Source: Burkholderiales bacterium (GTDB taxonomy: Bacteria > Pseudomonadota > Gammaproteobacteria > Burkholderiales > JBBRTU01). Taken from it: 64,000 nucleotides of DNA. The notes under the pieces are model-generated. The model was given only the letters and a program-made list of their open reading frames with translations, was not told where the DNA came from and ran no database searches. Both the position numbers and the translations under genes were made by a program. The stretch covers positions 131,238 to 195,237 of the forward strand of contig JBBRTU010000002.1 in the NCBI GenBank assembly GCA_038244115.1. Reading direction: 5' to 3'. How positions within the stretch are numbered: the first letter of the stretch is position 1; the number at the start of each line of letters is the position of its first letter. Positions 42,015 through 58,074 of this stretch are shown here, in pieces.

Positions 42015-42029
42015 TTTTAGAGGCGAAAA

Positions 42030-42725: not shown

Positions 42726-43049
42726 CACGTGGTGTGTCCAAACTTATGTAGGCAATAGTAGCGCAGGCACATTGACCACCTGTGTCGACCCTCATTGACC
42801 GAGTCTCTGACTATACCCTTGCAATAGCCGCTTTCGGGTGGAGGTTCCACTTACCTTAAATGTCGCAGTCGTGCCAATTGCTGCCATATGTGAATGTCCG
42901 TTGTTGGATCGCGAAATAATGCCGACTATTATTGCTAACCACCTTAGCCGGTCGCGCCACGCACAATTGACGTCGAAAAACTTTACACTTTTCAACGCTC
43001 AACGAGCGATCACTTTCCCAATATAATGAATTAATTGTCTTTATTTTTT

Positions 43050-43065
43050 CGGCATGATTATTGCT
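43050..43065 (+). promoter_or_regulatory. Sigma-54 (-24/-12) promoter CGGCATG-N4-TTGCT
   Basis: cggcatgattattgct has GG and GC at the correct spacing. It is nearly identical to the element at 29198-29213 and lies 86 nt upstream of the start at 43151. Confidence 0.6.
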
Positions 43066-43150
43066 TAAGTTTCCGGCAGTACCAATAAGCTGCGTAGCTT
43101 CTTTTCAAACGCACGAAATACACTCAATAATTATTTAACTGGAGGAAAAT

Positions 43151-43867
43151 TTGAAGTCCAACTCTTGCACCCTACTTGTAATCACATCCCTGTGCCTAGG
43201 TTCGCTGTCTGTGTCCTCTGCATATGCGGCTAGCTACTCAATTGCCGTTATGAATATAACAAGCGGTGGGTTTGTCGCTTATGACTATCTAAATCAACCG
43301 GTTACCAACCCAGATTCAGGCGGTACTTTCACACCTTTTTCAATAATTGGATCTAATACGAATTTGGTCGGGGGCTATCTCGGCAACACCAGTTCTGGCG
43401 CTTTAAGTGGGTTTTGGTATGGCGGCGCATTCCAGATGTACACCGCGCCTTCCAATTTGGGCGGCACTTATGTGCCAGCAGGAACTGTTCAAGGCGGTCT
43501 AGTACCTAGCGGCACGCTAGATAATGTTGCCGGCACTATAACAATGGATTTAAGCTCTTTATTTGCTTACTGGGGTGGTCTTGACTTTCACCAAGGAACC
43601 GGAAAGAACGACGGAGTAACTTCGACACTTGCAACTGGACTATGGGACTCAAGCAGCGGGCATTACAGTTTGTCATGGACTTCAAGTACTAATTTTTCAA
43701 ATAGCAATCCTTACGTGTGCGATTTTCAGTCACCAACTTGCTCGGCAAAATACACGCTAGAAGGTTATGCTGCCACCAGTGCAGTACCTGTCCCTGCGGC
43801 AGTTTATCTGCTTGGATCCGGCATACTTGGCCTCTTAGGCTTTGTTAGCAGGCGCAAGTCAGCTTAA
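43151..43867 (+). CDS. Secreted protein with VPxPA-type (PEP-CTERM-like) C-terminal sorting signal
   Basis: 238-aa ORF with a TTG start 6 nt after ggagga and a signal peptide. The C-terminus is SAVPVPAAVYLLGSGILGLLGFVSRRKSA (motif + TM + basic tail). Confidence 0.75.
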   Translation: MKSNSCTLLVITSLCLGSLSVSSAYAASYSIAVMNITSGGFVAYDYLNQPVTNPDSGGTFTPFSIIGSNTNLVGGYLGNTSSGALSGFWYGGAFQMYTAPSNLGGTYVPAGTVQGGLVPSGTLDNVAGTITMDLSSLFAYWGGLDFHQGTGKNDGVTSTLATGLWDSSSGHYSLSWTSSTNFSNSNPYVCDFQSPTCSAKYTLEGYAATSAVPVPAAVYLLGSGILGLLGFVSRRKSA

Positions 43868-44031: not shown

Positions 44032-45321
44032 CTAAATCGGTTCAAAGTCTGCGGCTATGGCGTCAGCGGTTGTAGCGTTCAAACCCGCTTTGTTGGCAAA
44101 TTTCAACCAGCTATCCAGGGCGGCGCGCACGTCCGCCAGCAAATCCAATGGGCGACGGACGCCAAAACGATCCGCTTCTATCAATAAATCGGCGCGCGTA
44201 ATCGCGCCGAACTTCCCGTTGACGTTCATCAGATGCTGATAAGTCCATTCCCCCCGGGGGTTGTAAGCATGCGTCACGTCGTAGGCCGGAGCCAGTTCCC
44301 ATGATCCGCCCTGCTTCAGGCGGAAAGCAGAATTCTTGGTGTGATCGTCACAGTTTTTTGCCATGACATTAAATGCCATGCGGCGGAAAGCTTGGCTGAT
44401 GGCTTCGTCTCCCAATTTGAGCTTGGCGATAACCATGAAAAGCTGGGCGTAGGCATGGGTGGCGCGTTGCTTGTAGTCAAGGTGATCCAGGGCGCAGAGT
44501 GTTTGCACGTGGTGCTTGATAGTGCCTTGGTCACGCGCTTCACGGTCGAAGCGGCGAGTCATGAAGTGAGCTCGGCCACCTTCTTCCAGCAACCGACAAG
44601 GTGACATGCTGATGCCGGCGGCAGTAGCCATCAGCTGGTAGGCGTATTCGATGCGGCCGTAATCCGCAGTGCCGCCCAATTCCAGGTCTTTGCCAATGCC
44701 ATCGAACTTGAGCAACCAATGCTCGAAGCCGGGGGCGGCATCGAACTGGCCGCTGCGAATCTGGTTTGTCTGCGGGTTCCAAGTGACGACTGCTTTCGCA
44801 CGCGCGCCACCCGCAGAGGTGCCGACCCGGATGACATTGGCGAGCGCTGCCTGCGCCTGCACGTCGCCGGACAGATCGCCATGAACCACTTTGCGCGCAG
44901 TTTCTACCAGCGTTTGCATCTCCAGCGGTTCGGCGCTTTCACGATGAGCGCCGCGTGCGGGTTTAAATTCCAGCGCGCCCATGCCACGCTTGCCCATGTA
45001 GGCGAGACGATCGAGCGTGGTGATGGCGCGTTTTTCGACCCCCTTGCGGGTCATCCAGGCATCGATTAGCGCATTGCCGAAGTCGTCGGGCAGCGCGTCG
45101 GCAAGCAATCCGGGCAGTCGTTTGAAGCTGGGTTCGGAAAGATCAGGAAAAGCAAAGGTGGGCTGGATATCATCCAGCGGCATAGTGAGCGGTGCCAATT
45201 CGATTCCGCTACGCCGCCAGGCGGGGTCGTAGGCAAACACATAACAGCCCAGGCGCGGATCTGGCGCCACGGCGCCAACACGCTTACCCCAGATGCGCAC
45301 TTCAATGACTGGGGTATCCAT
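44032..45321 (-). CDS. hipA: Type II toxin HipA-family Ser/Thr kinase
   Basis: 429-aa ORF with a typical HipA N-terminal coupling domain (IWGKRVGAV...) and a kinase core with NCDDHTKNSAF (catalytic loop D.H.KN). Confidence 0.9.
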   Translation of the reverse strand: MDTPVIEVRIWGKRVGAVAPDPRLGCYVFAYDPAWRRSGIELAPLTMPLDDIQPTFAFPDLSEPSFKRLPGLLADALPDDFGNALIDAWMTRKGVEKRAITTLDRLAYMGKRGMGALEFKPARGAHRESAEPLEMQTLVETARKVVHGDLSGDVQAQAALANVIRVGTSAGGARAKAVVTWNPQTNQIRSGQFDAAPGFEHWLLKFDGIGKDLELGGTADYGRIEYAYQLMATAAGISMSPCRLLEEGGRAHFMTRRFDREARDQGTIKHHVQTLCALDHLDYKQRATHAYAQLFMVIAKLKLGDEAISQAFRRMAFNVMAKNCDDHTKNSAFRLKQGGSWELAPAYDVTHAYNPRGEWTYQHLMNVNGKFGAITRADLLIEADRFGVRRPLDLLADVRAALDSWLKFANKAGLNATTADAIAADFEPI

Positions 45322-45641
45322 CAGCTTTCTTTGCGTAGCTTGGCAGTTCGCCGCGCGCGTTGCGGCGCTTTGGCCTGACGCAACAAATCTAGTGGGTTAA
45401 CGCTGATTTCTGGCGCAAGCATCTCAATCCCCTGAAGATATTCGAGCGCCTTCAATACACGCAACAAAGTTTCCACAGTTGAGCCTCGCCCGGCTTCAAG
45501 ATTGCGCAGCGCTTTTTCAGAGATGCCGGCTTTCTCGGCGGTGGTACGTTGATCTAGATTGCGATTTAGACGCAAGCGTCGTAGCCGTTTCCCTAGTACG
45601 GTTTGGAGTTCTTCTGGCGTGTTGAATAGCAGTTCACTCAT
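45321..45641 (-). CDS. hipB: HipB-like XRE-family HTH antitoxin
   Basis: 106-aa ORF with HTH LDQRTTAEKAGISEKALRNLEAG. Its stop overlaps the hipA start (TGATG). Confidence 0.85.
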   Translation of the reverse strand: MSELLFNTPEELQTVLGKRLRRLRLNRNLDQRTTAEKAGISEKALRNLEAGRGSTVETLLRVLKALEYLQGIEMLAPEISVNPLDLLRQAKAPQRARRTAKLRKES

Positions 45642-45913: not shown

Positions 45914-47377
45914 TCACAGCATTTTCAGATATTCAATCAAGGCCTCCTTATCAGTAGCAGGCAGCGTGGTGCCGTATTCATGCCCCCGGTTGCTGTTACC
46001 TTTGCGGCTTGCGTCCTGCTTGGAGCCTACGCGTTGCGCATCCTCACCCTGCACGATGAAGCCGGCATTCACCTGGTCGTACACGTCATAACCACGGTAG
46101 AACACGCTGGGCCGTTCGGCGGCTGGCGTCAATAGATCGCGTAGCGTCGGCACCGAACCATTGTGCAGGTAGGGCGCACGCAGCCAGATGCCGTCGAGAA
46201 AGGGGATGAGGTAACCGGTCAGGGTTTCCTCCACCAGCCCCTTGCGTTCCAGCCCCATGTCGCGCACCGTCTTGTTGGCGGCAATGGCGGCGGACTTGTT
46301 CCACGAATCCAGGCGACCTCTGTCGGTGCCGATCTCGGCTAGCAGCATGCGTGTGCCGGTACGCGCGCTAGCGTGGCAACTGGCGCAGTGCTGGTCGAAC
46401 ACCGTCTTGCCCTGCGCCGCTTTGTGCTTATCCAGCGCAAACGGATACTTCGGCGCGGGTTCTTTCAACAAATACTCGTGCAACCACTTTACCTGGCCGA
46501 GAAACGCTTGCTTGTCGTGCGGCGCGGCGCCGAGCACGCCGAGCGCAGAATCCATAATGACGGAATAAGCGTCGTGGCTATCGCCAGCCAGATTCATGAA
46601 CATGCCTTGTTCCGCTTTGTACTTTTGCAGGTTCCATACCGATGGCATGTCTGTCGGACCGAAGGTGTCGTCCATCGGTGCCTTGATCATGAAGTACTTG
46701 GTGAGGTTCATCGCGTCATCGCGCCCGCGCCCCCAGTCGGGAAAGTCCTTGCGGTAGATCCAGGCGAACTGCGCTTCGCGCTCGAGCAATCTCTTTTTTG
46801 TCATGGGGATGATGAGGTAGCGGTAGGCCAATTTGTCGATCCAGTCGAGATCGGTCACCAGCGCAATTTCGGCCATTATGTTGTCGGCATTAAAGCGCGG
46901 ATCGCGCGCACAGTCGACCAGGTAGCGGAAAAATGCCTGGACGTTGGTGGTGTGCCCCGGGCCGGCCACCACGTAAGTTGGCTGCTCATCCGGCTTCGAG
47001 CGGTAGCTTGCGGTGTGACACACAGCGCAATTATTACCCACACGCGGGAAGCCGATAACCTTTTTGGTGAATCCTACCGGCAGCTCCTGGCCCGGTTCCC
47101 ATGGCACACCGAGCGAAGCGTAGCCACCCGGCCCCGGCAGTTTTTCCGGGAACATGCGCGGCAGTACGTAGAAAATCCAGTAAGGAATGCCGGCATCGAA
47201 CTCGGCGCCGATGGAGCCGTATTTGAAACGCATCTCGGGGGTGGCCGTCACCCAGTCAGGCTGCGCCTCCTCGCGAAAAAACTTGTACCAGCCGACAAAG
47301 GCGCCCACCATGCCGAGCACCAGCAGCGCAATGCCGAACGCACGCAACAGCCGGCAATTTTTCATCAAGCAAGCCAT
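45914..47377 (-). CDS. Membrane-anchored di-haem c-type cytochrome, CCP/MauG-like C-terminal signature (paralogue A)
   Basis: 487-aa ORF with an N-terminal TM anchor and two CxxCH sites (CAVCH, CASCH). Motifs LRAPYLHNGSVPTLRDLL and a C-terminal GHEYGTTLPATDKEALIEYLKML. RBS gggga precedes the ATG. Confidence 0.75.
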   Translation of the reverse strand: MACLMKNCRLLRAFGIALLVLGMVGAFVGWYKFFREEAQPDWVTATPEMRFKYGSIGAEFDAGIPYWIFYVLPRMFPEKLPGPGGYASLGVPWEPGQELPVGFTKKVIGFPRVGNNCAVCHTASYRSKPDEQPTYVVAGPGHTTNVQAFFRYLVDCARDPRFNADNIMAEIALVTDLDWIDKLAYRYLIIPMTKKRLLEREAQFAWIYRKDFPDWGRGRDDAMNLTKYFMIKAPMDDTFGPTDMPSVWNLQKYKAEQGMFMNLAGDSHDAYSVIMDSALGVLGAAPHDKQAFLGQVKWLHEYLLKEPAPKYPFALDKHKAAQGKTVFDQHCASCHASARTGTRMLLAEIGTDRGRLDSWNKSAAIAANKTVRDMGLERKGLVEETLTGYLIPFLDGIWLRAPYLHNGSVPTLRDLLTPAAERPSVFYRGYDVYDQVNAGFIVQGEDAQRVGSKQDASRKGNSNRGHEYGTTLPATDKEALIEYLKML

Positions 47378-47386
47378 GCTTTTCCC

Positions 47387-48862
47387 CTAGAAAGTTTTCA
47401 TATATTCGATGAGTGCTGCCTTGTCTTCCGGCGGCAGTGTGGTGCCGAAACGCGGGCCATCGTGGCCCTGATTGCCGTTGCCGGACAGTCTGGTGTCATA
47501 GCGGAAATATTTGCGCGCGCCTTCCTCTGCGACAGTGGAAACGAAGCCCATGCGAACGGCGTCGTACACGTCGTATCCCCGGTAAAATATTTTTGGCCGC
47601 CTGTCTGCGGGTTCGAGTAGATCGGCCAGGGTCGGCACCGAACCATTGTGCAGATAGGGCGCGCGCAGCCACAATCCATCCAGCGGCGCATTGGCGTAAC
47701 CCCAGGTTTTACGGAAGTGGCTGAAGCGCTCGTCGCCATAGCCGGCATACACCGTGGCCTGGTTCAGCGCGAGGTCGGGCGTGTAGGAATCCAGGCGCCA
47801 ACGGTCCGTGCCGATGTCAAGAATCGGCGTGACCTTGCCCACGTATTCCCCGCTGAAGTTGCTGCCATTCACACCGTGGCATGCAGCGCAGTATTGTTGA
47901 TACACACCTTTTCCGCGCGCCGCTCGGTTCTGGTCGATGGGATAAGGCCAGGGCGGCGGGGTGGCAGTGGCCAGCCAGGCTTCCACGCGCTTGAGATTAT
48001 GGCGATCCAGCGTGGGCGGCGTGGTGCCGGCGCCCAACGCAGCGCTGTGATTGCGCTCCTCCAGCTTGTCATTATTGCCGTCCCAATGCAGTTGCATGCC
48101 ACGCTTCTTGGCCTGATTCCAGATGGCGGGGAAATCTGCCGTGCCGATCAGTTCGTGCGGGTCGGCGCGGTGCCAGGGCATGTTGAACAACGCCTTGGCC
48201 GAGTTGAAAGTATCCACCCTACCCGGCCCCCACTCGGGTTGACCATCGATAAAGGAGAAGCGCTCACGCAGCATCATCAGTTGTTCGCGCATGAGCAAAG
48301 TTGCCAGCGGGTAGACCAGGTAATGGTCGATCAGGTCGAGTTTGCCGCCGGTCTTTTCGATGGCGGGAATCATATATTCGCGCGAGAAACGCTTGTCGGC
48401 GGCACACTGAAAGAAAAATTTCTCGAAGCGCATCAGATCGAAAGAATTAGCCGGCATACCGGCGACAATGCGTGGCGTGGATGCTGGCGTGTCGCGCACG
48501 GTGTTAACGTGGCAAACCGCGCAATTGAGGAACACCCGATTCATGCCTTGATAGCGGCGCTGGGAAGTACCAATGGGAAGGTCGCGACCTTTTTCGTAGA
48601 TCATGCCGAGTGAAGCATAACCCTTGCCCGGCAGCAGATCCGGGCACACCTCAGGCAGCGCTTTCCAGATGCGGTAGGGGAAACCGGAGACGCGCTCGCC
48701 ACCCAGAGAGCCATACTGGAAGTGCTGTACCGGATCGCGGTATTCCACGGGGGAATCGCCGGAGAAGCGCCAAGCCAGGTACAGCACCAGCAGCAGGCCG
48801 ATACCCGCCAGGAAAAAAAGCGCGGTGCATATACATCCGCGCAGAGTGCAAAGTCGAGACAT
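47387..48862 (-). CDS. Membrane-anchored di-haem c-type cytochrome (paralogue B)
   Basis: 491-aa ORF colinear with paralogue A, with CAVCH and CAACH sites. Motifs LRAPYLHNGSVPTLADLL and GHDGPRFGTTLPPEDKAALIEYMKTF. Confidence 0.75.
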   Translation of the reverse strand: MSRLCTLRGCICTALFFLAGIGLLLVLYLAWRFSGDSPVEYRDPVQHFQYGSLGGERVSGFPYRIWKALPEVCPDLLPGKGYASLGMIYEKGRDLPIGTSQRRYQGMNRVFLNCAVCHVNTVRDTPASTPRIVAGMPANSFDLMRFEKFFFQCAADKRFSREYMIPAIEKTGGKLDLIDHYLVYPLATLLMREQLMMLRERFSFIDGQPEWGPGRVDTFNSAKALFNMPWHRADPHELIGTADFPAIWNQAKKRGMQLHWDGNNDKLEERNHSAALGAGTTPPTLDRHNLKRVEAWLATATPPPWPYPIDQNRAARGKGVYQQYCAACHGVNGSNFSGEYVGKVTPILDIGTDRWRLDSYTPDLALNQATVYAGYGDERFSHFRKTWGYANAPLDGLWLRAPYLHNGSVPTLADLLEPADRRPKIFYRGYDVYDAVRMGFVSTVAEEGARKYFRYDTRLSGNGNQGHDGPRFGTTLPPEDKAALIEYMKTF

Positions 48863-50877
48863 TACGTTCCTCCATGCGCCGGGAGACAGGGCGCAAGCGT
48901 GTCGAATGGACGTGCCAGTACACCGGGCGCATGTGCCCCCAGCAGCAATCCAGCATGTTGTTTGAGTTTGGCGAGCGCAGTGCCGTGTGTCCAGGCATCA
49001 ATAGAAATGCCGCGCATCTGCAATACAGTGGCGGGCGGCATCGGGGTGCGTTCCCGCGCCGCCTCGTCCACTCTCCACATCGACAGGCGGTAGTAGATGC
49101 GCTCGGCGCAGTGTGAAAGCTGGGTCTGCACCTGCGCTTCTTCGCCATGTAAAAAATTAGGCGGGAACGCTTCCTGGGTGTCATGGCAGAGACCACAGTG
49201 GGCGCGGAATTCCGTCACTATGTTGCTGGCATGGCCCGCGCTGGGTGCAATGTCAGTCTGCGCTGACGAATATTTTTGTGCCGCTGCTGCGTGGTGTGGA
49301 ATGCCCACGCCCGCAAACAAAGCGGGTACCAGTGCCGCGTGCCGAATCGGCCCCGCAAGCGCCTCGGCTCGGCTGCGCACCATGGCATCGAGCGTGGAAT
49401 CCACCACGCCGAATTCGTCGCGCAGTTGCAGCGTGGCGTGAGCGCCGGTTGGCGTAATCTGCACATCGATGGCGATCACGCGCTGTGCGGACACGCTGCG
49501 CACATTGCGCCCGTCGCGTCGCAAGCCGAAATGCAATGCACCTGCATGCGCTGTTCCTGCCATCACCTCGACAGTGGCCAGCGCGGGCTGACCGGGCAGT
49601 TCCAGTGCATCGAGCGTGCCGCGCACTACTCGACCAGCGCGCACGAACACGCGTCCGCGCAGGCCGAATCCTGCCGCATCCTTCGGCTGGCAGTTGAGTG
49701 AAAACCGATTTTCAGAATCTGTATTTCGTTGCTCCACCGCGCATTCAGCGGCGAGGTTGCGGGTACTTTCTGCCTGGCGCGACAGAGCGGCGTCCAGGCT
49801 GGCGATATCGCGCGCACTGAAAAAATCCGCCACGCCACTTACCAGATTCGCGGCGGCGGTATCCACGTCCCATACAGCCATCGGCGGACGCTGGCGCAGC
49901 GGGTCTGACTCAGCCGTGATGGCGCTGGTCAGCGGATTGCGATTGGGAATATGCGCGTCGGGAATAGCCAAGCCGCCGTGCCAACGTGAAAGAAAAGCAC
50001 TGTGCAGGGTAGGGAGCACGATCTCACGCCACGCCGCCGAGTCATGTTCGAAGTCGAGGCCGCCTGAGAGTCGATATTGCAGCGCGAGTTTAACGGCGGC
50101 AGCGCGGCAGCGCACTGCCTCTGGCGTGGCGCCACCGCACGCTTCGCGCCATAGAAACTGGTATACGTTAAGCAGGCTGGCACGACTGGTGGCGTCATCC
50201 ACCGCGCTGGGTATGTCTACACCGATGTCCAGTGGCGCGCCATAGAAGTCGCGGTGAGTAGCCTTGAGACGCTGGCGCACGCCATCGTTGGCAGCGGTTT
50301 CGTCCCATAGCGGGCGAGAAAAAACCGGTGCCGCGTTCTGATGGCAGGCCAGGCAAAGACCGCGCTGGGCATACACCACACGCGGCGCGGCGCCGGGCCG
50401 GTAATTACGTACTACTTGATATTCGAAGCGGCCTGCCTCTTCGTTGTAACTGATGGCCTCGATCACGCCGGCCTTCTCGTGATAGCCGAGATAAATGCGA
50501 TCGCGCAGCAATGGCTCACCCGCGCGCGACTCTCCATCCACCGCCACTACCAGCCGCGGATATCTGAAGAAATCCGGCGCAGCGGCATTGCGCACCAATG
50601 AGCGCCCCATGGGGATGAGTACCTGGCGCACCGGATCTGTGCTGCCAGATTCCATGTGCATACGCAGTTGTGCCACCACGCTGGAAAAGGGGAAGGGCAG
50701 GCGATAGCTACCGTTAGCCGTGTACAGTTCATCGAACAGCGAACGACCCCTTGGCGGCAGATCCGGGCCGGGCCTACCGGGATCAATGGCCCACACCGGC
50801 GGCGTAGACGTCATGCCCTCAGCCATGGCTGGCGCCGTGAAAAATAACAGGGTCATGATCCACGCCACACGCGTCAT
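48862..50877 (-). CDS. Secreted 671-aa di-haem c-type cytochrome of unrecognised family
   Basis: Start at the internal Met (MTRVAWIMTLLFFTAPAMAEG signal peptide), whose ATG overlaps the upstream stop (ATGA). CLACH lies in the N-terminal third and CGLCH near the C-terminus. Confidence 0.7.
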   Translation of the reverse strand: MTRVAWIMTLLFFTAPAMAEGMTSTPPVWAIDPGRPGPDLPPRGRSLFDELYTANGSYRLPFPFSSVVAQLRMHMESGSTDPVRQVLIPMGRSLVRNAAAPDFFRYPRLVVAVDGESRAGEPLLRDRIYLGYHEKAGVIEAISYNEEAGRFEYQVVRNYRPGAAPRVVYAQRGLCLACHQNAAPVFSRPLWDETAANDGVRQRLKATHRDFYGAPLDIGVDIPSAVDDATSRASLLNVYQFLWREACGGATPEAVRCRAAAVKLALQYRLSGGLDFEHDSAAWREIVLPTLHSAFLSRWHGGLAIPDAHIPNRNPLTSAITAESDPLRQRPPMAVWDVDTAAANLVSGVADFFSARDIASLDAALSRQAESTRNLAAECAVEQRNTDSENRFSLNCQPKDAAGFGLRGRVFVRAGRVVRGTLDALELPGQPALATVEVMAGTAHAGALHFGLRRDGRNVRSVSAQRVIAIDVQITPTGAHATLQLRDEFGVVDSTLDAMVRSRAEALAGPIRHAALVPALFAGVGIPHHAAAAQKYSSAQTDIAPSAGHASNIVTEFRAHCGLCHDTQEAFPPNFLHGEEAQVQTQLSHCAERIYYRLSMWRVDEAARERTPMPPATVLQMRGISIDAWTHGTALAKLKQHAGLLLGAHAPGVLARPFDTLAPCLPAHGGT

Positions 50878-51746
50878 TCTGCCTTGGCAACGACATGCTG
50901 CTGCGTGCCGCTCCAGCAATCCTCGGGAGTCTGTCCAGCGCGGAATGCCTTGCGCCCGGCATTGTCGAGCGCTTTGCTATAGAGCGTGAAGTTGAGCAGG
51001 AAGGCGCGATCGGTATATGCCCGCCCCAGGTAGAAGCCGGGCCGTATCATGCGGATATCATCGCGCACCTGGAGGCCGCGACGACCCGCCAGAAAATCGG
51101 GGCGCTCGTGGTAGCCGGGCAAGTCATCGGAGAAAGCGTAGTCGATGATAATGGACTCGCGCCGTCCGTCGAGCAGGCTCTGGCCGCAGTAGAGTTTGGC
51201 CGGAAACAGCAGCCAGGCGTCGCGTCCATCCACGCTGATTTTTTGCAGTGATGCTGGGTTATCGATGATGGGTTTTAGAAGCGCCAAGTCGTCGATGCGG
51301 TTGCGCAGCACGCGTTGATCCCGGTAAAACACTTTGCCTTTCCATAGGGTTTCGCCGGCCATATCGAGCTTGCGCACGCCGAGCTGTGCGGTTAGGCCGG
51401 AAAGCCCGCCAAGGATCTCTGCTGCGCGGAATTTGCCCGAAGAACCTTTGGGGAACTGGATTTTTCCATCGAACGGCCCGTCCGGAATCGGTCCGGCGGT
51501 AAGCCGTGCGTAGACTTGGTCAAGCTGCTCCTGATCCAACGTGGCAAGATATTCGGGGGTGATTCTCTCCAGCTCCTTGGCGGGGATGGGGAAGCGGTGC
51601 TCCACCTCGGCGAGATCCATCTTGCTGGAATAAGCCTCTGCATAAGGCGCGAACTTGATTTCCGGTTTGGGTTTGAACATTGCTGCAATCTGGTCACACC
51701 CGGATAGCATAATGAGGAGCATGGTCACAATAAGCGCGCGTTTCAT
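50874..51746 (-). CDS. Lipoprotein of unknown function
   Basis: 290-aa ORF with lipobox LLIMLSGC and RBS gggaga. I recognise no family. Confidence 0.65.
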   Translation of the reverse strand: MKRALIVTMLLIMLSGCDQIAAMFKPKPEIKFAPYAEAYSSKMDLAEVEHRFPIPAKELERITPEYLATLDQEQLDQVYARLTAGPIPDGPFDGKIQFPKGSSGKFRAAEILGGLSGLTAQLGVRKLDMAGETLWKGKVFYRDQRVLRNRIDDLALLKPIIDNPASLQKISVDGRDAWLLFPAKLYCGQSLLDGRRESIIIDYAFSDDLPGYHERPDFLAGRRGLQVRDDIRMIRPGFYLGRAYTDRAFLLNFTLYSKALDNAGRKAFRAGQTPEDCWSGTQQHVVAKAE

Positions 51747-51866
51747 GGAGTTTCTCCCTTGGGCGATAAGTTTTTGGTGTCTGCCATGGTGGTTTCCTCG
51801 AAGCTGAAAATGGTAGTTGGGCGTGGTGGGGTAAGCGGGGGCGCTTGTGTTTTTGCCGTGGATGCT

Positions 51867-51886
51867 GCTGCGCGGCGCCGCGCAGC
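51867..51886. repeat. Perfect 20-bp GC-rich palindrome in intergenic spacer
   Basis: gctgcgcggc|gccgcgcagc, read directly. It lies in the 225-bp gap between the 846-aa cytochrome gene and the lipoprotein gene. Confidence 0.8.
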
Positions 51887-51971
51887 TCGGCTGCAGACAC
51901 TGGGTAAACCTCGCGGCGCTGGAGCAAGTTTTGCGTTTCGCTTCATGTCAGTTCCTGGAATGCCGTTCGAA

Positions 51972-54512
51972 CTAAAGCGTCGCGAGGAAGGCAATCAAAG
52001 CCTTCTTATCGGTATCACTCAAGTCCTGGCCGAAACGGTGTCCGTCGTTTTCCACGTCTGCGGTGCAAGAGCTGTAAACCTCCAGCAGCAGCGGCAGCCG
52101 TTCCTTTGCTGCTTTCACCGCCGTGAGCAATTGCGCTGGATCGTTGACAATAGCGCTGGCGATAGTCTTCATTTCCTGCGCCACCTTGTGTCCGTTGTCC
52201 GGGCCAAGCTGCTTGACCAGCCTGGCTTCCAGCACTTCCGGCTGGGTCTTGGCCTGCACTAAATCCACGATAAATGGCTTGTGCTGGAAATTGCCGAGTA
52301 GCCCGGCGTTGGTGCCTGCCGGTATGCGCAGCGTGAAGCCGAAGAGTTTTTTCTCCTCATGACCATCCCATACTTTTGGCCCCAGATCGAGCACGATGTC
52401 CTGGTCCAACTTGGTGATCTTGGGGATGCGTCGCTCCGGATAAAGCAATTCCTGCATCGACGCCTTGTACAACTTATAACGCCCTTCCACACTGGGATCG
52501 TAAGCCCAGCATCCCGGCTGTTTGTCGCTGGGGAGCAATTGCTTGGTCTGCGCATCGACATAGGACGGTCGGTAAAAATCATACGGCTGACCGGTGCCCC
52601 AGCCGCATATCTCCGGGCCTAGCGCGTTGTTATGCATGAATGGCGCGTGCGCCCACAGATTCAGCAGCGAAATATTGCGGTACTGACCGCGGCCACCACC
52701 GTTTTTCTCGGGGATGCCATTGTCGGCTGGCAACGCATGATGGGTAACCGAAGCGAATTCGTCCCACACGTGGCCGGTCATGTGGTTGGAGTGCAATGCT
52801 CGGCAACGGAAGGTGCCGACTTCGGAAGCGGGGGTATGTTTGTCATTGCCGAGCCAGTCTGCGCGCAGACCGGTTTCCTTGGACACGGCATAAAAATCTT
52901 CTTTGCCGGGCTGGCTGGAATGACAACGCGCGCAATTCGCCGCGAACACCCCACGGCCACGGCTGACTGCGCCCTTGTCATATTCGTGTTCCAGATCGGC
53001 AACCAGATCGTCATGGCTGTAGCGCGCCTGCGGATTTTTTTGCTTGAGCATGTTCTCTCGCGCAATGGAAAGATCGGTGGCAGTTGCCTCCTTGGAAGTG
53101 AGGAAGGCGAGGATGTCGGGTAGCCGATCCTCAATCGCACGGAAGTTGGGGCAATCGCGTCGGCACTGGCCAATGCTGAAGGGCGTCTGGCCGAAATTGC
53201 GCGCCTTGGGATCGAGTTGCCTCAGGTCGGTGAGGTGATTCACCCAGCATTGTTCGGAGCACGACCCAATATTAAAGTACACGCGCTGGATAGCACCAAG
53301 CGCGCCAATGGAATCACCGCCATCCTTGAGAATGTGGTGCACGGCTTCTTCCTTTTCGCCACGCTGCCAACACTTGCCCGGTTTGCCAGGCTCACACCAA
53401 CACGCCGTGTCGGGTTCGTCGGCAGCGCAGGAAGCCGTTTTGCGCCAGGCGATGACGCGTTCGCCGGGGTGGGTCGGACGCTGCAGAATGTTAATCAGCG
53501 CGTTCATGGTGCCGGGGTTATTGATCTGGTCAGTGGGCACCGCCGAGGTGTCGCTGGTGCCGGGGCGGGCATGCGCGAAGACCTGCCATTCCAGCGAATC
53601 GCGCGGCATACCGGAAACCATGATTTCCGAAATGTGCGAGTATTGATTACCGATTGCGCCCTTCAGATTTTCCCATCCGGGATGCGCCGGATCTGCCGGC
53701 GGATTGGCAGGATCAAAGGCGATATGACAGGTGCCGCACGCCATGCCAATGCGGAACGGCGGTTGAATCGAGCCATCGACTAGCTTGCTGACTTTGGAAT
53801 CGGACAGCTCCGGATTGACGGAGAGCTTGCGGTTGTAACCTTCCCAGGTACCGAGCTTGCCACCGTTCAGCTGCTTCCATGCTGCGGCGTTGAACAATGG
53901 GTTGGGGAATTTACGCAGCCCCATGATCCCGCTGGAGGTGCCGAATGCCAGGTCGCAAGATGATTGCCTTTGACTTGCATGGCGATCCTTGGGATCAGCC
54001 GGTGCGTCTTTGAAGTCGCAAGCTGCGTCGCGGTAGCCGCTCTTGCCGACGAATTTCAGCAGCTTGTCATCACCCGGACACCAGTCCAAACCGTAAGTCT
54101 CTTCAGGACTTTTTGCGGGACAGTTGGGTGAACCGGGTCGACAGCAGCCGGGGTCGTTGATCATGCCCCAGGTCTTGAAGCGCTCGTCGCGCTTGTCCGT
54201 GCGCAACACACCAAACCAGTCGATCATGACGCCAATGCGTTGCTGAAATACATAAGTATGGAAGCGCTCGTTGCCGGCGGTGGCTTTGTACCAAATCTCC
54301 CGTCCGGCGCGCGCAGAGGGAGTAAGGTCGGCTGCCGCTTGATAAAAACCCGCCTCACTATAATCGCTGCTCACGACCGGCGGGGGTGCTGGCTGCGCAG
54401 CAGCAACTGTCACTTCACGCGCAGCGGGTTGGCCGGTCGGCTGGGCAGCAATGCCGGTTGAAACTCCGAACCCAAAAAACACCAGCGCAGCAATAATCTT
54501 GCCAATTCTCAT
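51972..54512 (-). CDS. Secreted Cys-rich 846-aa di-haem c-type cytochrome, distant paralogue of A/B
   Basis: Signal peptide, then CGTCH and CARCH sites. LWAHAPFMHNNALG and a C-terminal GHRFGQDLSDTDKKALIAFLATL parallel paralogues A and B. More than 20 additional cysteines. Confidence 0.75.
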   Translation of the reverse strand: MRIGKIIAALVFFGFGVSTGIAAQPTGQPAAREVTVAAAQPAPPPVVSSDYSEAGFYQAAADLTPSARAGREIWYKATAGNERFHTYVFQQRIGVMIDWFGVLRTDKRDERFKTWGMINDPGCCRPGSPNCPAKSPEETYGLDWCPGDDKLLKFVGKSGYRDAACDFKDAPADPKDRHASQRQSSCDLAFGTSSGIMGLRKFPNPLFNAAAWKQLNGGKLGTWEGYNRKLSVNPELSDSKVSKLVDGSIQPPFRIGMACGTCHIAFDPANPPADPAHPGWENLKGAIGNQYSHISEIMVSGMPRDSLEWQVFAHARPGTSDTSAVPTDQINNPGTMNALINILQRPTHPGERVIAWRKTASCAADEPDTACWCEPGKPGKCWQRGEKEEAVHHILKDGGDSIGALGAIQRVYFNIGSCSEQCWVNHLTDLRQLDPKARNFGQTPFSIGQCRRDCPNFRAIEDRLPDILAFLTSKEATATDLSIARENMLKQKNPQARYSHDDLVADLEHEYDKGAVSRGRGVFAANCARCHSSQPGKEDFYAVSKETGLRADWLGNDKHTPASEVGTFRCRALHSNHMTGHVWDEFASVTHHALPADNGIPEKNGGGRGQYRNISLLNLWAHAPFMHNNALGPEICGWGTGQPYDFYRPSYVDAQTKQLLPSDKQPGCWAYDPSVEGRYKLYKASMQELLYPERRIPKITKLDQDIVLDLGPKVWDGHEEKKLFGFTLRIPAGTNAGLLGNFQHKPFIVDLVQAKTQPEVLEARLVKQLGPDNGHKVAQEMKTIASAIVNDPAQLLTAVKAAKERLPLLLEVYSSCTADVENDGHRFGQDLSDTDKKALIAFLATL

Positions 54513-54605
54513 ATCGTTTTCTCCAATTAAGTGTAGTGATTAGTGCTGCCTTGGTTGCCTTAATCAGTATAGACAAGGCAAAAAAAAGTAAAGGTGGCGA
54601 CAAAT

Positions 54606-57590
54606 TTATTTGATGTGGCCAGCCACCTCCCTCACCCACTGGTCACAACTTGATGCCCCGTTACCTTTCCAGTAACCATTTCCAAATAACTCTTCGCCGG
54701 TTAGCAAACCCAGCTGCCGGTAACTTTCAAATTGCGGCTCGTCGAACCACTGGTCAGATGTTGGCTGGTGCGGAAAATCCTGGTGTGTGGTCGCACAATG
54801 ACGCACGTCTATTGGTTCATTGCCGCACAGCAGGGGCTTGACGTAGACCAGGACGCCTTTTTTTCCCGATGCATATTTTATGCGCCCGATAACAAAACGG
54901 ATGCGCGCTTTCGGCTCCTGTTCCAACATCGGTGCCACATCAATGTCTATTTCCGCGCCCATATCTATGCGGCAATTGAGCACCGCGTTTCCCAGGTCTT
55001 CAAATTCGAAGTCAGCGTCACAGCCCCCGTCGCACACCACAATCAACTTGCATTCCCGCCGCACCAATTCGTACAGGCCCAAATTTTCAAAATGGCCGCC
55101 ATCGGAAAGATTAATAAATTGGCTTTGATCGTCCGTGCTGCAGAGCAGTTCTTTCAGTAAGCACCCCAATCCGAACGTGGGGCTGGACAACCTCCTTGCA
55201 TTTTCATATTTTGGATTGCCGCACCACCGTCCCAGCCGGACATTGAAAAAAGTCATGATAAAAGCCAGTGGCGGCGACGTATGGTAGCCTTGATTAGGGC
55301 TTGCCGCCGCGCCGGAAACGGCTATCGCCGTACCCAGCTTGGCGCCTTCCGTAGCCTCTTTCCCCCACCCTTCCTTGCTCATGTATTCCCTGGTTTCACA
55401 GTAGGCTTGCTGCTTATCTGTCAACCTATAACCGCAATGCCTGGGTGAAAAAATGAACGAGCCGCTTAGCCTTTGCTGCCATTCCAAATGTCCTTCCTCG
55501 TTGCCAGCACTAACGGTTTGAGGATTGCTTCCCTTAGTCAAATTCAGCGCGGCATTCACTAAATGAACGGGCCGCTGATTCTCTAATCTGGACATTGGCA
55601 AATCATCGTTGGGATCAAAATCGGTGAAGGCATCACCGCGCCGCACAGGGTTGGAAGCACCGAGGTAACAGCGGGTCAAGCGGTTGCGGTAAAACTGGTG
55701 CATTGAAAACAGATTAATGTCGACCCGAAAAGCCAGAAAAATGCCTACCAGCAGAGAAATCACCATCGCTCCGGGGATGGCATATTCATACTTCGCCCAA
55801 ACCTTCTGTTCCTCAACATAGGTCGCATCTGCGTAGGCTGAGAAATTGGTTGCCCGTTCAGCAAACCAGGTTTCAAGTTTGAAGTTCCGCTCGTCATCGG
55901 CATTATTCTCCATTTGCAATTCATAACGCCTGTGCAGAGGCGTTGCGGTGCCCGATTTAGCCTGGGCTGTCGCAATCACCGGCTGTATTCCCGCGTACTT
56001 CATAAGGCCCTTGTGCGTCCCGACGGACAACAATACGAGCAGCCCGACAATGAACACGTAGGGCGTAATTTTTGCCAAGACCTCCAACCATTTATTGGCG
56101 CACTTGCCGCCCGTTTTTTCGCTGCGCGCTAACAGAACTCCGGCAGTGGAGGATGCCAGCCATGCAATACCGCCGCTGTATGCAAGCCAGGCGCCAAGAT
56201 AATTCCACATTGCCGCACCATAAAACGACACCAGACATAGTCCCGTCCAGGCGAGCTGAATTGCGATAACCAGGCCACCAATACGGCCCAGCCATTCCCG
56301 GCCCTCTTCGCTAAAGTGCCGTTTGCCGATACCAATATGTATCACCAGTCCGAGGCTGAGAATTTGAAACACCGCCGCAGTACCTAAGCCGAAAAGCATC
56401 CAGCTAATATGCTTCACGTCCACCATCATTCCCACCAACTTGGCGCAGCCATAAAGCATCAGCCCCATCGCCGCACCAGGGATTGTCGGAAATAGAAACA
56501 AAAACCAGCGTCGCCACCATTTCCCATCGGGCGAGGCGGCTCCTTCTCCCTTATGTGACTTGGCTAGCCTGGTACGAGCAATTAACCAACCCAGTGACCA
56601 AACCGCACAGTAAATAATGGCACCCGTCGCAGCCCACCAAAGTGCGCCGCCTTCCAGATCGGTAAATTTTTCTTTTAGGGATACGAACTCGGCGGTCACA
56701 ATGAGTGAGGTTAAAAAACCGGGCAGCACCACTCTCATCAAAACCCAAAGACCGTTCGGGCAGCATTTGTCCTTATCATTGTCCTTGTTGCCGTTTCCCT
56801 GCGTGCTACTGGCCAAGGTATTCAACCCTCTTGCAACGCTGGTCGCGGCAAAGATCAACAGGAACGCCAAGGCAACGAAGATCCAGCTACATTCCAGTGA
56901 CCTAATATGAGCCGTCGTATCAGGCGACACAGGAATACCCAAATATGTCAGGCTCGCCAACATGTACTGGCCGAGCCGGGGCGGGGCTTCCCAGAGGGGA
57001 AGCAGCATAAGAGGAAACAGCAACAAGGCCGTTAGCAAGGAAAGCAATATGGCTTGGTTCAGCAACAAATTGCGGGATATATTTGCGACTGCCGCTAGCG
57101 TGTCCAGACTGAAGACACCGTATCGCGGCGTAAGATAATTGCTGTAACGGCGCAGCCAATTAATGGCATGGCCCTCGGGTTTTCTTGGCTCTTTTTCTGT
57201 CTCTGGCCGGGTCTGGATTTCAGCTTCCACCGCTTTGATGGCTAGAGCAATAGACTTCTCTGGTTCTTCCTTTTCAAGCGGATTGATCAACGCTTCGGCT
57301 TTCCTGTTCAGCAGCGCAGAAAACCATCCGCCGATATACCCACCCCCCGAAACTGTGGAGAGGTAATCAATACGCCGCAATAGTCTTTTATTTGCCATTG
57401 CCTGCAGGATGCCGAGATTGAAGGTGGCGCTTCGAATCCCACCACCAGAAAATGCCAGTCCGAATAGCGCGAGGTCCTGACCACCATCGGCTGGGCGCTT
57501 TCCATCCACAGCATCGCGGCAATGACGGATTACCGCCTTTTCACACTCAAAAACTTCCGCCCACATTGGTGCTATTGAATCTTCCGTCAT
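54606..57590 (-). CDS. Patatin-like phospholipase with a large polytopic membrane insertion
   Basis: 994-aa ORF with oxyanion motif FSGGGIRSA (aa 48-55), nucleophile elbow TVSGGG (Ser81) and Asp motif LSDGGHFENLG (Asp about 830). Roughly 10 hydrophobic helices lie between them. RBS ggggaga. Confidence 0.8.
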   Translation of the reverse strand: MTEDSIAPMWAEVFECEKAVIRHCRDAVDGKRPADGGQDLALFGLAFSGGGIRSATFNLGILQAMANKRLLRRIDYLSTVSGGGYIGGWFSALLNRKAEALINPLEKEEPEKSIALAIKAVEAEIQTRPETEKEPRKPEGHAINWLRRYSNYLTPRYGVFSLDTLAAVANISRNLLLNQAILLSLLTALLLFPLMLLPLWEAPPRLGQYMLASLTYLGIPVSPDTTAHIRSLECSWIFVALAFLLIFAATSVARGLNTLASSTQGNGNKDNDKDKCCPNGLWVLMRVVLPGFLTSLIVTAEFVSLKEKFTDLEGGALWWAATGAIIYCAVWSLGWLIARTRLAKSHKGEGAASPDGKWWRRWFLFLFPTIPGAAMGLMLYGCAKLVGMMVDVKHISWMLFGLGTAAVFQILSLGLVIHIGIGKRHFSEEGREWLGRIGGLVIAIQLAWTGLCLVSFYGAAMWNYLGAWLAYSGGIAWLASSTAGVLLARSEKTGGKCANKWLEVLAKITPYVFIVGLLVLLSVGTHKGLMKYAGIQPVIATAQAKSGTATPLHRRYELQMENNADDERNFKLETWFAERATNFSAYADATYVEEQKVWAKYEYAIPGAMVISLLVGIFLAFRVDINLFSMHQFYRNRLTRCYLGASNPVRRGDAFTDFDPNDDLPMSRLENQRPVHLVNAALNLTKGSNPQTVSAGNEEGHLEWQQRLSGSFIFSPRHCGYRLTDKQQAYCETREYMSKEGWGKEATEGAKLGTAIAVSGAAASPNQGYHTSPPLAFIMTFFNVRLGRWCGNPKYENARRLSSPTFGLGCLLKELLCSTDDQSQFINLSDGGHFENLGLYELVRRECKLIVVCDGGCDADFEFEDLGNAVLNCRIDMGAEIDIDVAPMLEQEPKARIRFVIGRIKYASGKKGVLVYVKPLLCGNEPIDVRHCATTHQDFPHQPTSDQWFDEPQFESYRQLGLLTGEELFGNGYWKGNGASSCDQWVREVAGHIK

Positions 57591-58074
57591 CTATATCTCC
57601 CCGAGGCAATAACTAGCCAGTTCTTTGGCTGCTCTCAAGCGTTTCTTCAATAGTCTGGATTCGAGGGGGTAAAACTGCTGTTTCAGATTGCGCCTGAACT
57701 TGGCGCAAAAAGGGGCGTAGGGGTTTACAGCCATTCCAGCATCCTCCAGTTAAAATTAAGCAAATCAACGCAGGCGATTTTAGGTTCCTGCGAGTACCCC
57801 AATGAACCGCCAGCGACATGGCAAATTTATTCGACAGGGCCTTGCGCGAATATAGTTATAGCATATGTATTTTGCATTTAACAAAGTTTTTTTGTTAATC
57901 ATTTTTATCAGGCAGGGATCTCGGGCTATGCACAACTTCCGCAGTTTGTTTCTAAGCGTCACCTCACTGTTTCAAACAGGCGGGATTAAACATTTTTGAG
58001 ATCCATTCCACGATACGTTTTACTGCCTATGGAATTGCGGGTAAAATCACTTCCCTTCCCAAAAAAAACAGAAC

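Follow-up and report, generated by a model that had tools for sequence, protein, structure and literature searches.

A 64,000-nucleotide stretch of a Burkholderiales bacterium genome (contig JBBRTU010000002.1, hereafter the window) carries six consecutive minus-strand genes, which we call G1 to G6 and which encode a membrane patatin (G1), four proteins with two c-type haem motifs each (G2, G4, G5 and G6) and a lipoprotein (G3). The last five form a module that recurs in other genomes: G2-G3-G4 is its invariant core, G5-G6 a replaceable part, and the patatin a facultative partner and no fixed member. Our preferred reading, held tentatively and as a possibility short of a probable one, is that G2-G6 form a periplasmic haem module oxygenating or peroxidising a hydrophobic, probably unsaturated lipid carried by G3. 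This reading rests on gene layout, family membership, haem motifs, the modelled fold of G3 and synteny, and the activity itself is a prediction.

The neighbourhood survey covered 94 loci fetched through G3, including 9 reference-genome loci, 80 metagenome loci and several long contigs. The families were mapped in these loci by tblastn, and the denominators used here are the loci with enough DNA on the relevant side. G2 lies upstream of G3 in 54/54 loci, at most 400 nt away in 50 of them, and G4 lies downstream of G3 in 60/60. At one locus (L101) where the G3 homologue is only 35% identical, its neighbours are nonetheless di-haem genes resembling G2 (38%) and G4 (28%), and G5 and G6 are missing. 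This unbroken linkage, persisting at about 35% identity, identifies G2-G3-G4 as the invariant core. After G4 come G5 and G6 in 31/35 loci and, in the other four (L008, L015, L042 and L066), a three-gene alternative. Its last gene encodes a genuine DyP-type peroxidase of the D type (PDB 8re3, E=1.7e-48); the other two proteins (about 411 and 433 aa) match no family, and no member of the trio has a signal peptide. G5-G6 is thus a replaceable module. The initial annotation had proposed that the genes form a module, and co-occurrence of G2-G6 across genomes bears this out; its further view that G3-G6 were the tight core and the place of G2 doubtful has to be reversed. In other lineages, single gene calls take in G3 together with the end of G2 or with the beginning of G4; two apparent domain fusions of G3 (P0193, P0252) were rejected as such merged calls, and the other long G3 representatives carry no informative extra domains.

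The organism of the window is an uncultured relative of Sulfurirhabdus. The closest relative of the window cluster, in a Sulfurirhabdus metagenome-assembled genome (MAG; L009), shares 83% identity with the window G2 and G3, and nucleotide synteny between the two covers G2-G6 only. Further hosts are Thiobacillus and other Hydrogenophilales, among them a T. denitrificans strain, Sulfuricella sp. T08, Sulfurirhabdus autotrophica, Sulfuriferula, Ca. Nitrotoga sp. AM1P, soil Burkholderiales, Casimicrobiaceae, Luteimonas and a Bdellovibrio-like MAG. G3 homologues come from groundwater, sediment, wetland, soil and sludge metagenomes.

Direct reading of the window reproduced all six open reading frames (ORFs) of the initial annotation, with their junctions, haem-motif counts and targeting signals (Table 1). 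The G3 stop overlaps the G4 start in an ATGA at 50877-50874, and the G4 stop and G5 start meet in a TAATG at 48864-48860; the remaining gaps are 9 nt between G5 and G6, 225 nt between G2 and G3, and 93 nt between G1 and G2. A Shine-Dalgarno-like purine run precedes every start and is weakest before G4, whose start overlaps the G3 stop. For G4, a mechanical ORF list begins at a TTG at 50919; from the ATG at 50877 the protein has 671 aa and a proper signal peptide (MTRVAWIMTLLFFTAPAMA), and this ATG is the coupled start. A promoter and terminator scan of the cluster gave hits at chance level only, and neither an Rfam search nor plasmid records returned anything. Each of G2, G4, G5 and G6 has exactly two CxxCH motifs, both retained in 51/53 orthologues of G2, 57/59 of G4, 44/44 of G5 and 32/33 of G6, so that the haem motifs are not a product of chance. 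G2 and G4 carry signal peptides, G5 and G6 a single N-terminal transmembrane (TM) anchor, and G3 a lipobox, LSGC.

G5 and G6 align over their full length as paralogues (hhalign E=2e-117), with 35.5% identity over about 500 aligned residues by tblastn and 37% in the profile alignment. Both exceed the cutoffs of PF21419 (RoxA-like_Cyt-c; 58.9 bits each against 26.7) and of NF040606, which NCBI names 'di-heme cytochrome C peroxidase' (189.3 bits for G5 and 164.5 for G6 against 150). They belong, then, to an already modelled family, none of whose close members is characterised. The equivalog models for RoxA, RoxB and RoxC (NF050033, NF050034 and NF051462), with cutoffs of 900-1000 bits, gave only 58, 61 and 79 bits for G5 and 50, 63 and 76 for G6; on these scores and on host ecology, rubber degradation was rejected as a function. 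The canonical cytochrome c peroxidase (CCP) model CCP_MauG (PF03150) found a sole match among the cluster proteins, G6, at E=0.27 and 12.3 bits against a gathering threshold of 25.6. The best solved relative of the pair is RoxA (4b2n, E=4.9e-9), to which only their C-terminal region aligns significantly. The alignment of G5 spans the MauG motif (APYLHNGSVP in G5, APYFHNGSVP in RoxA) and the C-terminal GH motif, which in RoxA provides the haem-2 ligand H641. The haem motifs of G5 are CAVCH118 (C114 to H118) and CAACH329 (C325 to H329), 211 residues apart, followed by PYLH405NGSVP and GH467D; those of G6 are CAVCH121 and CASCH335, 214 residues apart, followed by APYLHNGSVP and GH466E.

The large core cytochrome G2 shares part of this architecture. 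Its haem motifs are CGTCH263 and CARCH531, with some 18 further cysteines, and its C-terminal haem domain is RoxA-like, with a variant MauG motif (APFMHNN, within PFMH627NNALGP) and the GH motif in NDGH825RFG...DKKALIAFLATL. Residues 513-631 match the haem-2 domain of G5 and G6 at an hhalign probability of about 98%, the GH motif of all three proteins aligns to RoxA H641, and all three share the tail GH...DK.ALI.FL..L. At profile level the resemblance is faint: 13-15 bits to the C-termini of RoxA, RoxB and RoxC, 28.7 bits to NF040606 (below the cutoff of 150) and no match to PF21419. Both CxxCH motifs and H825 are invariant in an alignment of 25 orthologues, as are many cysteines in the N-terminal 500 or so residues. 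That N-terminal half belongs to no known family and, even by profile, found nothing in the PDB beyond generic cytochrome c haem-motif matches. On sequence, G2 shares only the haem-2 domain and tail with G5 and G6. In public databases it is annotated as 'cytochrome c' or 'hypothetical protein'. Across G2, G5 and G6, the CxxCH pair, the MauG motif and the C-terminal histidine ligand are kept in at least 90% of orthologues. The initial annotation had seen in these proteins a C-terminal signature recalling CCP and MauG, and it is real: W(A/L)(H/R)AP(F/Y)(M/L)HN followed by GH..G..L...DK.ALI.(F/Y)(L/M), kept in orthologues. By this signature, G5 and G6 fall into the RoxA-like branch of the di-haem CCP superfamily, with G2 as a more distant member. 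Its remark that the N-terminal halves are unrelated to CCP also holds, as they show no sequence relation to canonical CCP or MauG.

G4 stands apart. Its conserved N-terminal module (CLACHQN..P.F.RPLWDET.AN) and C-terminal module, a class-I-like cytochrome c (CGLCHDT...PPNFLHG...PMPP, consensus C..CHDT), both defined on 25 orthologues, enclose a variable central insert that is missing in orthologues of about 510 aa. hhalign found no relation of G4 to G2, G5 or G6 beyond the haem motif; PF21419 and NF040606 did not match, and searches of Pfam, NCBIfam and the PDB returned no relatives, the PDB giving only generic cytochrome c haem-motif matches. As far as sequence can tell, G4 is not homologous to the other three and is no CCP-type paralogue. 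The picture of four atypical di-haem cytochromes, drawn when the locus was first read, stands for the two haem motifs in each and for the CCP-like signature in G2, G5 and G6; G4 does not belong with these three.

G3 is the most conserved member of the cluster (mean column identity of 76% among 15 homologues). Its family, entirely unnamed, falls into over 3,400 clusters at 90% identity and into 493 at 50%; a Pfam search of 62 diverse members gave no credible match, the one marginal hit having E=0.0045. An AlphaFold2 model from 15 close homologues reached a pLDDT of 39; with an alignment of 62 sequences that added representatives of the 50% clusters, it reached a pLDDT of 90.9 and a pTM of 0.87. 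This model has a beta-strand, then a helix-turn-helix, then about nine more strands and, at the C-terminus, a helix, which is the topology of the fatty-acid-binding proteins (FABP) and CRABP, so that G3 is predicted to be a calycin/FABP-like beta-barrel with a helix-turn-helix lid. Foldseek placed 4mve first (E=1.9e-4), then CRABP-II, FABP1, myelin P2 and lipocalins at weak scores. The residue at lipobox position +2 is Asp, and Asp or Glu among homologues; by the E. coli rule, Asp at +2 predicts retention of G3 in the inner membrane. The protein also has invariant Trp, Tyr and Cys residues.

What the RoxA-like proteins of the module might do can be approached through the characterised members of that branch. 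RoxA and RoxB are O2-dependent dioxygenases that cleave alkenes, and peroxidase activity is lacking in RoxA; in this enzyme haem 2 has bis-His ligation (H394/H641), F317 is close to the bound O2 and W302 lies between the haems, whereas RoxB, which acts synergistically with RoxA, has Val (V294) at the W302 position (PMC6311187). In Pseudomonas aeruginosa, the tandem paralogues PA2077, a 10S-dioxygenase (W251), and PA2078, a 7,10-diol synthase (S243), oxygenate oleate in the periplasm (PMC4496055). G5 has a Trp in HW260DG that aligns with RoxA W302 (LHW260DGNN against QFW302DGSL), and G6 lacks an inter-haem Trp, with MNLAGDS at that place in the profile alignment. At the position of RoxA F317 (MAF317G), the window G5 has Leu (AAL276G), as has G6, in a weak N-terminal alignment; the G5 family consensus, SAAFG, keeps the Phe, unlike the window copy.

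We propose that G2-G6 would act as an enzyme module of the RoxA/FadCcp type on the periplasmic face of the inner membrane, with a fatty acyl or isoprenoid chain as substrate. G3 would bind the lipid at the membrane surface and hand it to the enzymes, of which G2 would be the large soluble core catalyst and G5 and G6 the membrane-anchored paralogues. In each of the three, the N-terminal haem would activate O2 or a hydroperoxide and oxygenate or otherwise transform the substrate; G5, which keeps the inter-haem Trp, could be the oxygenating enzyme and G6, which has lost it, a downstream converter, as in RoxA/RoxB and PA2077/PA2078. The class-I-like domain of G4 may link the enzymes to the periplasmic electron pool. 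Where a patatin or a Lipase_3 enzyme is attached, as in the window, it would feed free acyl chains, while being dispensable for the module. The inferred parts of this scheme are the class of substrate, the sharing of tasks between the four cytochromes and any part played by the patatin.

The proposal draws on the FABP-like, membrane-tethered G3, the recurrent lipases, the membrane anchoring of G5 and G6 and the cytochrome c-like module of G4. In its favour are the conservation of the MauG motif and of the distal haem-2 histidine in G2, G5 and G6, and the insertion of two unrelated lipase families (patatin and Lipase_3) in 20/35 loci. By analogy, so are the oxygenation of hydrophobic alkenes by all characterised RoxA-branch members and the apparent parallel between the G5 (W260)/G6 pair and the pairs RoxA W302/RoxB V294 and PA2077 W251/PA2078 S243. 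The DyP trio in the G5-G6 slot of 4/35 loci suggests peroxide or oxygen chemistry there. The speculation of the initial annotation about lipid substrates and an oxylipin-like signal thus gains indirect support, from the modelled fold of G3, the lipases and the P. aeruginosa oleate pair; non-lipid hydrolases also join the clusters, and the idea is unproven.

Several observations pull the other way. The mapping of RoxA W302 and F317 onto G5 lies in a weak-scoring segment, and the window G5 has Leu for F317. Neither the N-terminal half of G2 nor any part of G4 has detectable relatives, so the chemistry of the core enzymes cannot be read from them. About 40% of clusters carry no lipase, Nitrotoga having a ferritin-like gene instead; an amidase, proteases, an alpha-amylase and an EEP-family enzyme join clusters, and a lipid pathway does not explain them. 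The accessory hydrolases and the DyP protein lack signal peptides, whereas the cytochromes are exported, and the catalytic domain of the patatin, with no signal peptide and about 10 predicted TM helices, may face the cytoplasm. The loci, chosen through G3, are phylogenetically clustered, and their counts are not independent events. Finally, NCBI names the NF040606 family a peroxidase, and an electron-transfer-like G4 would fit a reductive peroxidase better than a self-sufficient dioxygenase.

These last two points lead to a peroxide-reducing chain, an idea already present in the initial annotation, in which G4 would pass electrons from the periplasmic pool to G2, G5 and G6 as true peroxidases acting on H2O2 or on organic or lipid hydroperoxides. 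G3 would deliver hydrophobic hydroperoxides and the patatin excise oxidised acyl chains, for detoxification or repair and not for synthesis. The family name whose cutoff G5 and G6 pass, the class-I-like domain of G4 with its PMPP Met-ligand motif, the DyP trio replacing G5-G6 in some loci and the ferritin/Dps-like gene directly upstream in Nitrotoga all suit such a chain. We nevertheless hold it to be unlikely. The CCP_MauG Pfam model is unmatched (best E=0.27), and haem 2 appears to be bis-His, as in RoxA, and not His/Met as in bacterial CCPs. Bacterial membranes whose lipids are mainly monounsaturated peroxidise poorly. Four large paralogues would be too many for simple peroxide removal. RoxA itself, moreover, is no peroxidase (PMC6311187).

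The place of the patatin has to be weighed separately. G1 passes the Patatin model (PF01734; 30.7 bits, cutoff 27.7) with a match confined to residues 45-127. It has an oxyanion motif GGGIR at 49-53, a nucleophile in TVS82GG, where Thr replaces the first Gly of G-x-S-x-G in a way kept across homologues, and an Asp in D830GGH; its catalytic domain is, atypically, split by about 450 residues with about 10 TM helices. Upstream of G2, 35 loci have 3.2 kb of DNA or more; 15 of them have a membrane patatin, and 20 have a patatin or Lipase_3. The cluster-linked patatins belong to no fewer than three divergent lineages and occur on both sides of the cluster: a Thiobacillus-type lineage upstream, preceded by an AmpD-like Amidase_2; a second downstream of G6 (L009 and L056); and that of the window G1. 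The whole membrane-patatin family has more than 7,500 members.

That the patatin is merely adjacent in the window, with G1 acting independently in membrane lipid turnover or as an effector-like lipase and G2-G6 as the functional unit, is a serious contender that we rate somewhat below an even chance. All four close G1 homologues sampled (P0274, P0282, P0290 and P0373) stand alone in unrelated contexts, and G1 is closer to such database patatins (41-49% identity) than to the other two cluster-linked lineages (36-37%). GC content at third codon positions (GC3) is 0.58 in G1 against 0.66-0.75 in G2-G6, although gene by gene GC and GC3 mark neither as clearly foreign; synteny with L009 stops at G2-G6; and G1 has its own Shine-Dalgarno sequence and is separated from G2 by 93 nt. 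Stand-alone relatives, lower GC3 and the synteny boundary thus make the tie a loose one. Against mere adjacency, the three lineages occur in three arrangements (upstream with the amidase, upstream alone, and downstream of G6), a recurrence that, on a rough estimate, is far above chance for a family of one to few copies per genome. G1 is also on the strand of the cluster, no terminator-like site lies in the 93-nt gap, and in L011 the patatin-G2 gap is just 19 nt. That different patatins were recruited time and again speaks for a functional tie, and we think it somewhat probable that G1 is functionally connected to the cluster in the window. The patatin had first been listed as a module member; it recurs in 15/35 loci, and the 20/35 without it, with the four stand-alone homologues, make it a facultative partner. 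Six patatin homologues (P0373, P0344, P0305, P0342, P0390 and P0310) have N-terminal PG_binding_1 or Lipase_3 fusions with no intervening TM helix and no signal peptide, which puts in question on which side of the membrane the lipase lies and whether it has access to the periplasm.

The window also holds a 47-codon ORF (MAVNPYAPFCAKFRRNLKQQFYPLESRLLKKRLRAAKELASYCLGEI) with a GGAGG ribosome-binding site, whose TAG stop abuts the G1 ATG. No similar peptide was found upstream of four other patatin homologues, and the ORF may be spurious or lineage-specific.

The genes that surround the core elsewhere form a variable shell. Lipase_3 sits mostly between G4 and G5. Thiobacillus-type loci contain a matrixin/astacin-like protease, a weakly papain-like 671-aa protein with a 353-aa membrane protein, an EEP-family enzyme, a classical patatin with a TIR protein, and a peptidoglycan amidase; one such locus (L011) is operon-like, with nine genes spaced -8 to +28 nt. 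A GH13 alpha-amylase-family gene without a signal peptide occurs between G3 and G4 in several Thiobacillus-type loci, and no hypothesis considered here explains it. Between G2 and G3, some loci carry three extra genes, for a beta-propeller lipoprotein resembling YncE, a protein with a FecR domain and a polytopic membrane protein of 141 aa. The closest relative has this optional insert and the window does not; the 225-nt gap of the window was considered as its remnant and, with no trace of it there, rejected as such. Unlike the exported proteins (the cytochromes, G3, beta-propeller and FecR-domain protein), the hydrolases and DyP lack signal peptides.

A conserved core inside a highly variable shell of hydrolases without signal peptides could belong to a conflict or lytic system, in which the haem trio would sense or generate an oxidant and swappable degradative effectors would kill competitors or trigger self-lysis. 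Candidate effectors are the patatin, Lipase_3, the peptidoglycan amidase, the metallo- and cysteine proteases, the EEP enzyme and the TIR protein. The fusions of some patatin homologues to PG_binding_1 or Lipase_3, the toxin-antitoxin flanks in the window (hipBA) and Nitrotoga (HigB-like), and a type VI secretion system (T6SS) Tle1-like lipase near the L015 cluster would fit. We regard such a system as quite improbable. A search of the six window proteins against PADLOC-DB (E<=0.01) gave no meaningful match, its one hit, of G1 to Csm3 (E=0.005), being marginal and implausible; some 40% of clusters are free of hydrolases, and the hydrolase-rich versions are concentrated in one clade, the Thiobacillus type. 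No NTPase, secretion or immunity genes were recognised, and G3 is much too conserved for an immunity protein. A related and likewise improbable view makes G2-G3-G4 a new three-component periplasmic haem machine with swappable partners, built from a giant RoxA-like enzyme, the FABP-like lipoprotein and a new kind of di-haem protein. It would be an oxidative envelope-degrading, envelope-remodelling or conflict system, widespread among Betaproteobacteria that oxidise sulfur, iron or nitrite, and no mere oxylipin synthase or peroxidase. Its partners would be extra di-haem oxygenases or DyP, and its shell the lipases, amidase, proteases and amylase.

The sulfur, iron and nitrite oxidisers among the hosts (Thiobacillus, Sulfuricella, Sulfuriferula and Nitrotoga) bring to mind inorganic or respiratory electron transfer, to or from Fe(II), sulfur or nitrogen oxides. 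The MauG motif of G5 and G6 and the invariant Trp, Tyr and Cys of G3 could instead indicate a MauG-like cofactor maturation, with G3 as the modified substrate. To either role we give very little credence. Two haems per 490-850 residues is enzyme-like and no wire, and on that count a multihaem 'wire' was rejected; the hosts extend to Luteimonas, soil Burkholderiales and the Bdellovibrio-like MAG; it has no conserved dehydrogenase partner, porin or quinone-binding subunit; and the modelled fold of G3 is of the small-ligand carrier type. Lipid oxygenation by G2-G6 remains the reading that we prefer.

Table 1. Coordinates of the cluster genes and of other features in the window and in the compared loci.
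Feature	Locus	Coordinates	Strand	Description
G1	window	54606-57590	-	994-aa patatin-like phospholipase; facultative neighbour, not core
G2	window	51972-54512	-	846-aa periplasmic di-haem cytochrome; first gene of invariant core
G3	window	50874-51746	-	290-aa lipoprotein, calycin/FABP-like beta-barrel model
G4	window	48862-50877	-	671-aa periplasmic di-haem protein, two modules
G5	window	47387-48862	-	491-aa membrane-anchored RoxA-like di-haem enzyme (predicted)
G6	window	45914-47377	-	487-aa membrane-anchored RoxA-like di-haem paralogue of G5
47-codon ORF	window	57591-57734	-	upstream of G1
hipB-hipA	window	44032-45641	-	directly downstream of G6
Regulator/kinase/PEP-CTERM genes	window	40386-43867	+	seemingly unrelated to cluster
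G2-G3 three-gene insert	L009	7137-9965		beta-propeller, FecR-domain and membrane proteins
G2-G3 three-gene insert	L015	7250-9957		same; also in L025, L027, L024, L022
DyP trio	L015	13298-17331		alternative to G5-G6
GH13 alpha-amylase gene	L024	3134-4978		between G3 and G4
GH13 alpha-amylase gene	L086/L087	750-2597		between G3 and G4
GH13 alpha-amylase gene	L030	between 10867 and 12772		between G3 and G4
Upstream array	L020	1492-7284		hydrolase and TIR genes, co-directional
Downstream genes	L020	16182-19078		EEP-family enzyme, papain-like protein
Ferritin/rubrerythrin-like gene	L102	9496-9957		upstream of G2 homologue
HigB-like toxin, antitoxin, transposases	L102	20387-21920		trailing the cluster
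Second G3-like gene	L010	6761-11514		upstream of G2
Second G3-like/G2-like pair	L008	18340-20846		partial

Directly downstream of G6, the window has a hipB-hipA pair: hipB, a 106-aa helix-turn-helix (HTH) gene, has a stop that overlaps the start of hipA, whose product has HipA_C and Couple_hipA domains. In Ca. Nitrotoga sp. AM1P (AP019547; L102), a HigB-like toxin paired with an HTH antitoxin likewise comes after the cluster, as do transposases, and such genes beside both clusters hint that the cluster sits at variable spots of the genome. The same Nitrotoga locus has no lipase; its only added gene, ferritin/rubrerythrin-like, ends 44 nt before the G2 homologue and is the single observation tying the cluster to iron or oxidative stress. 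Further along the window, on the plus strand, lie a response regulator fused to a long TPR region, a protein with a histidine-kinase-like ATPase fragment and then a 238-aa protein with a PEP-CTERM-like sorting signal at its end (VPVPAAVYLLGSGILGLLGFVSRRK); these seem unrelated to the cluster.

In L020, the cluster lies within a long array of co-directional genes. Those upstream encode a classical patatin, a TIR-domain protein, a membrane protein like the 353-aa one, an Amidase_2 and a matrixin/astacin-like protease, and those downstream a papain-like protein preceded by an enzyme of the EEP family; the effector-like set is reminiscent of conflict systems. Second copies of core genes were also seen. 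The Bdellovibrio-like MAG has another, divergent G3-like gene upstream of G2, and the Casimicrobiaceae contig a partial G3-like/G2-like pair, 27-28% identical to the window proteins, in which the G3-like match is on the strand opposite to the G2-like one.

The characterised functions of the RoxA branch are just two: rubber cleavage and, in P. aeruginosa, the oxygenation of oleate to quorum-sensing oxylipins. The cluster reveals a much larger, uncharacterised radiation of this branch, organised as a fixed module with a dedicated FABP-like lipoprotein and carried by environmentally important chemolithoautotrophs (Thiobacillus, Sulfuricella, Sulfurirhabdus, Sulfuriferula and Ca. Nitrotoga). If lipid oxygenation is its function, bacterial oxylipin or oxidative lipid-remodelling chemistry would reach far beyond Pseudomonas, and thousands of proteins annotated 'cytochrome c' or 'hypothetical protein' would acquire a role. 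The presence of the cluster in cultured hosts, including Sulfurirhabdus, Thiobacillus denitrificans and Ca. Nitrotoga, makes the question directly testable.

In the searchable literature, neither the G2-G6 module nor its association with lipases turned out to be described, in line with the initial impression of an undescribed gene combination. G2, G3 and G4 are unclassified families, and for each part of the module the nearest known systems can be compared. The barrel model of G3, with a helix-turn-helix between strands 1 and 2, resembles the FABP, CRABP and lipocalin carriers and 4mve (Tcur_1030, of unknown function). It differs from them in having no sequence similarity (7-17% identity), in TM-scores that, normalised to G3, do not exceed 0.35, and in an extra N-terminal helical region of 80 residues and a lipid anchor. 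With canonical CCP and MauG (PF03150), G2, G5 and G6 have in common the di-haem architecture and a conserved His-containing motif after haem 2; unlike these, the cluster proteins are larger, do not match PF03150, appear to have His in place of Met or Tyr as the haem-2 ligand, and have unrelated N-terminal domains.

RoxA and RoxB of Steroidobacter cummioxidans 35Y (4b2n) come closer. Like G5 and G6, they have two c-type haems, the MauG motif PY(F/L)HNGSVP and a distal haem-2 histidine in a C-terminal GH motif; G5 appears to share the (F/H)WDG motif with its inter-haem Trp, and in both cases a diverged pair has one member with the Trp and one without (PMC6311187). The Rox proteins are secreted and of about 70 kDa, whereas G5 and G6 are membrane-anchored, of about 490 aa, and reach just 50-63 bits where the equivalog models require 900-1000. 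At the place of F317 the window G5 carries Leu; G2, G3 and G4 of the cluster have no counterpart in Rox systems; and no link to rubber is known for its chemolithoautotroph hosts. The FadCcp proteins PA2077 and PA2078 are likewise tandem RoxA-like di-haem paralogues of the periplasm, one with and one without the inter-haem Trp (PMC4496055). G5 and G6 are adjacent and both have the MauG motif, with the Trp placed on RoxA W302 through a weak-scoring segment, and a free fatty-acid substrate would, by analogy, suit the lipases of the cluster and an FABP-like G3. Compared by published description, PA2077 and PA2078 are longer (634 and 624 aa against 491 and 487), have wider haem spacing (245 and 235 against 211 and 214) and carry cleavable signal peptides in place of N-terminal anchors; their operon, as described in that paper, has no G2-, G3- or G4-like genes (PMC4496055). 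What is known here is the membership of G5 and G6 in NF040606 and PF21419; what is new is the occurrence of RoxA/FadCcp-type enzymes inside a fixed multi-component module.

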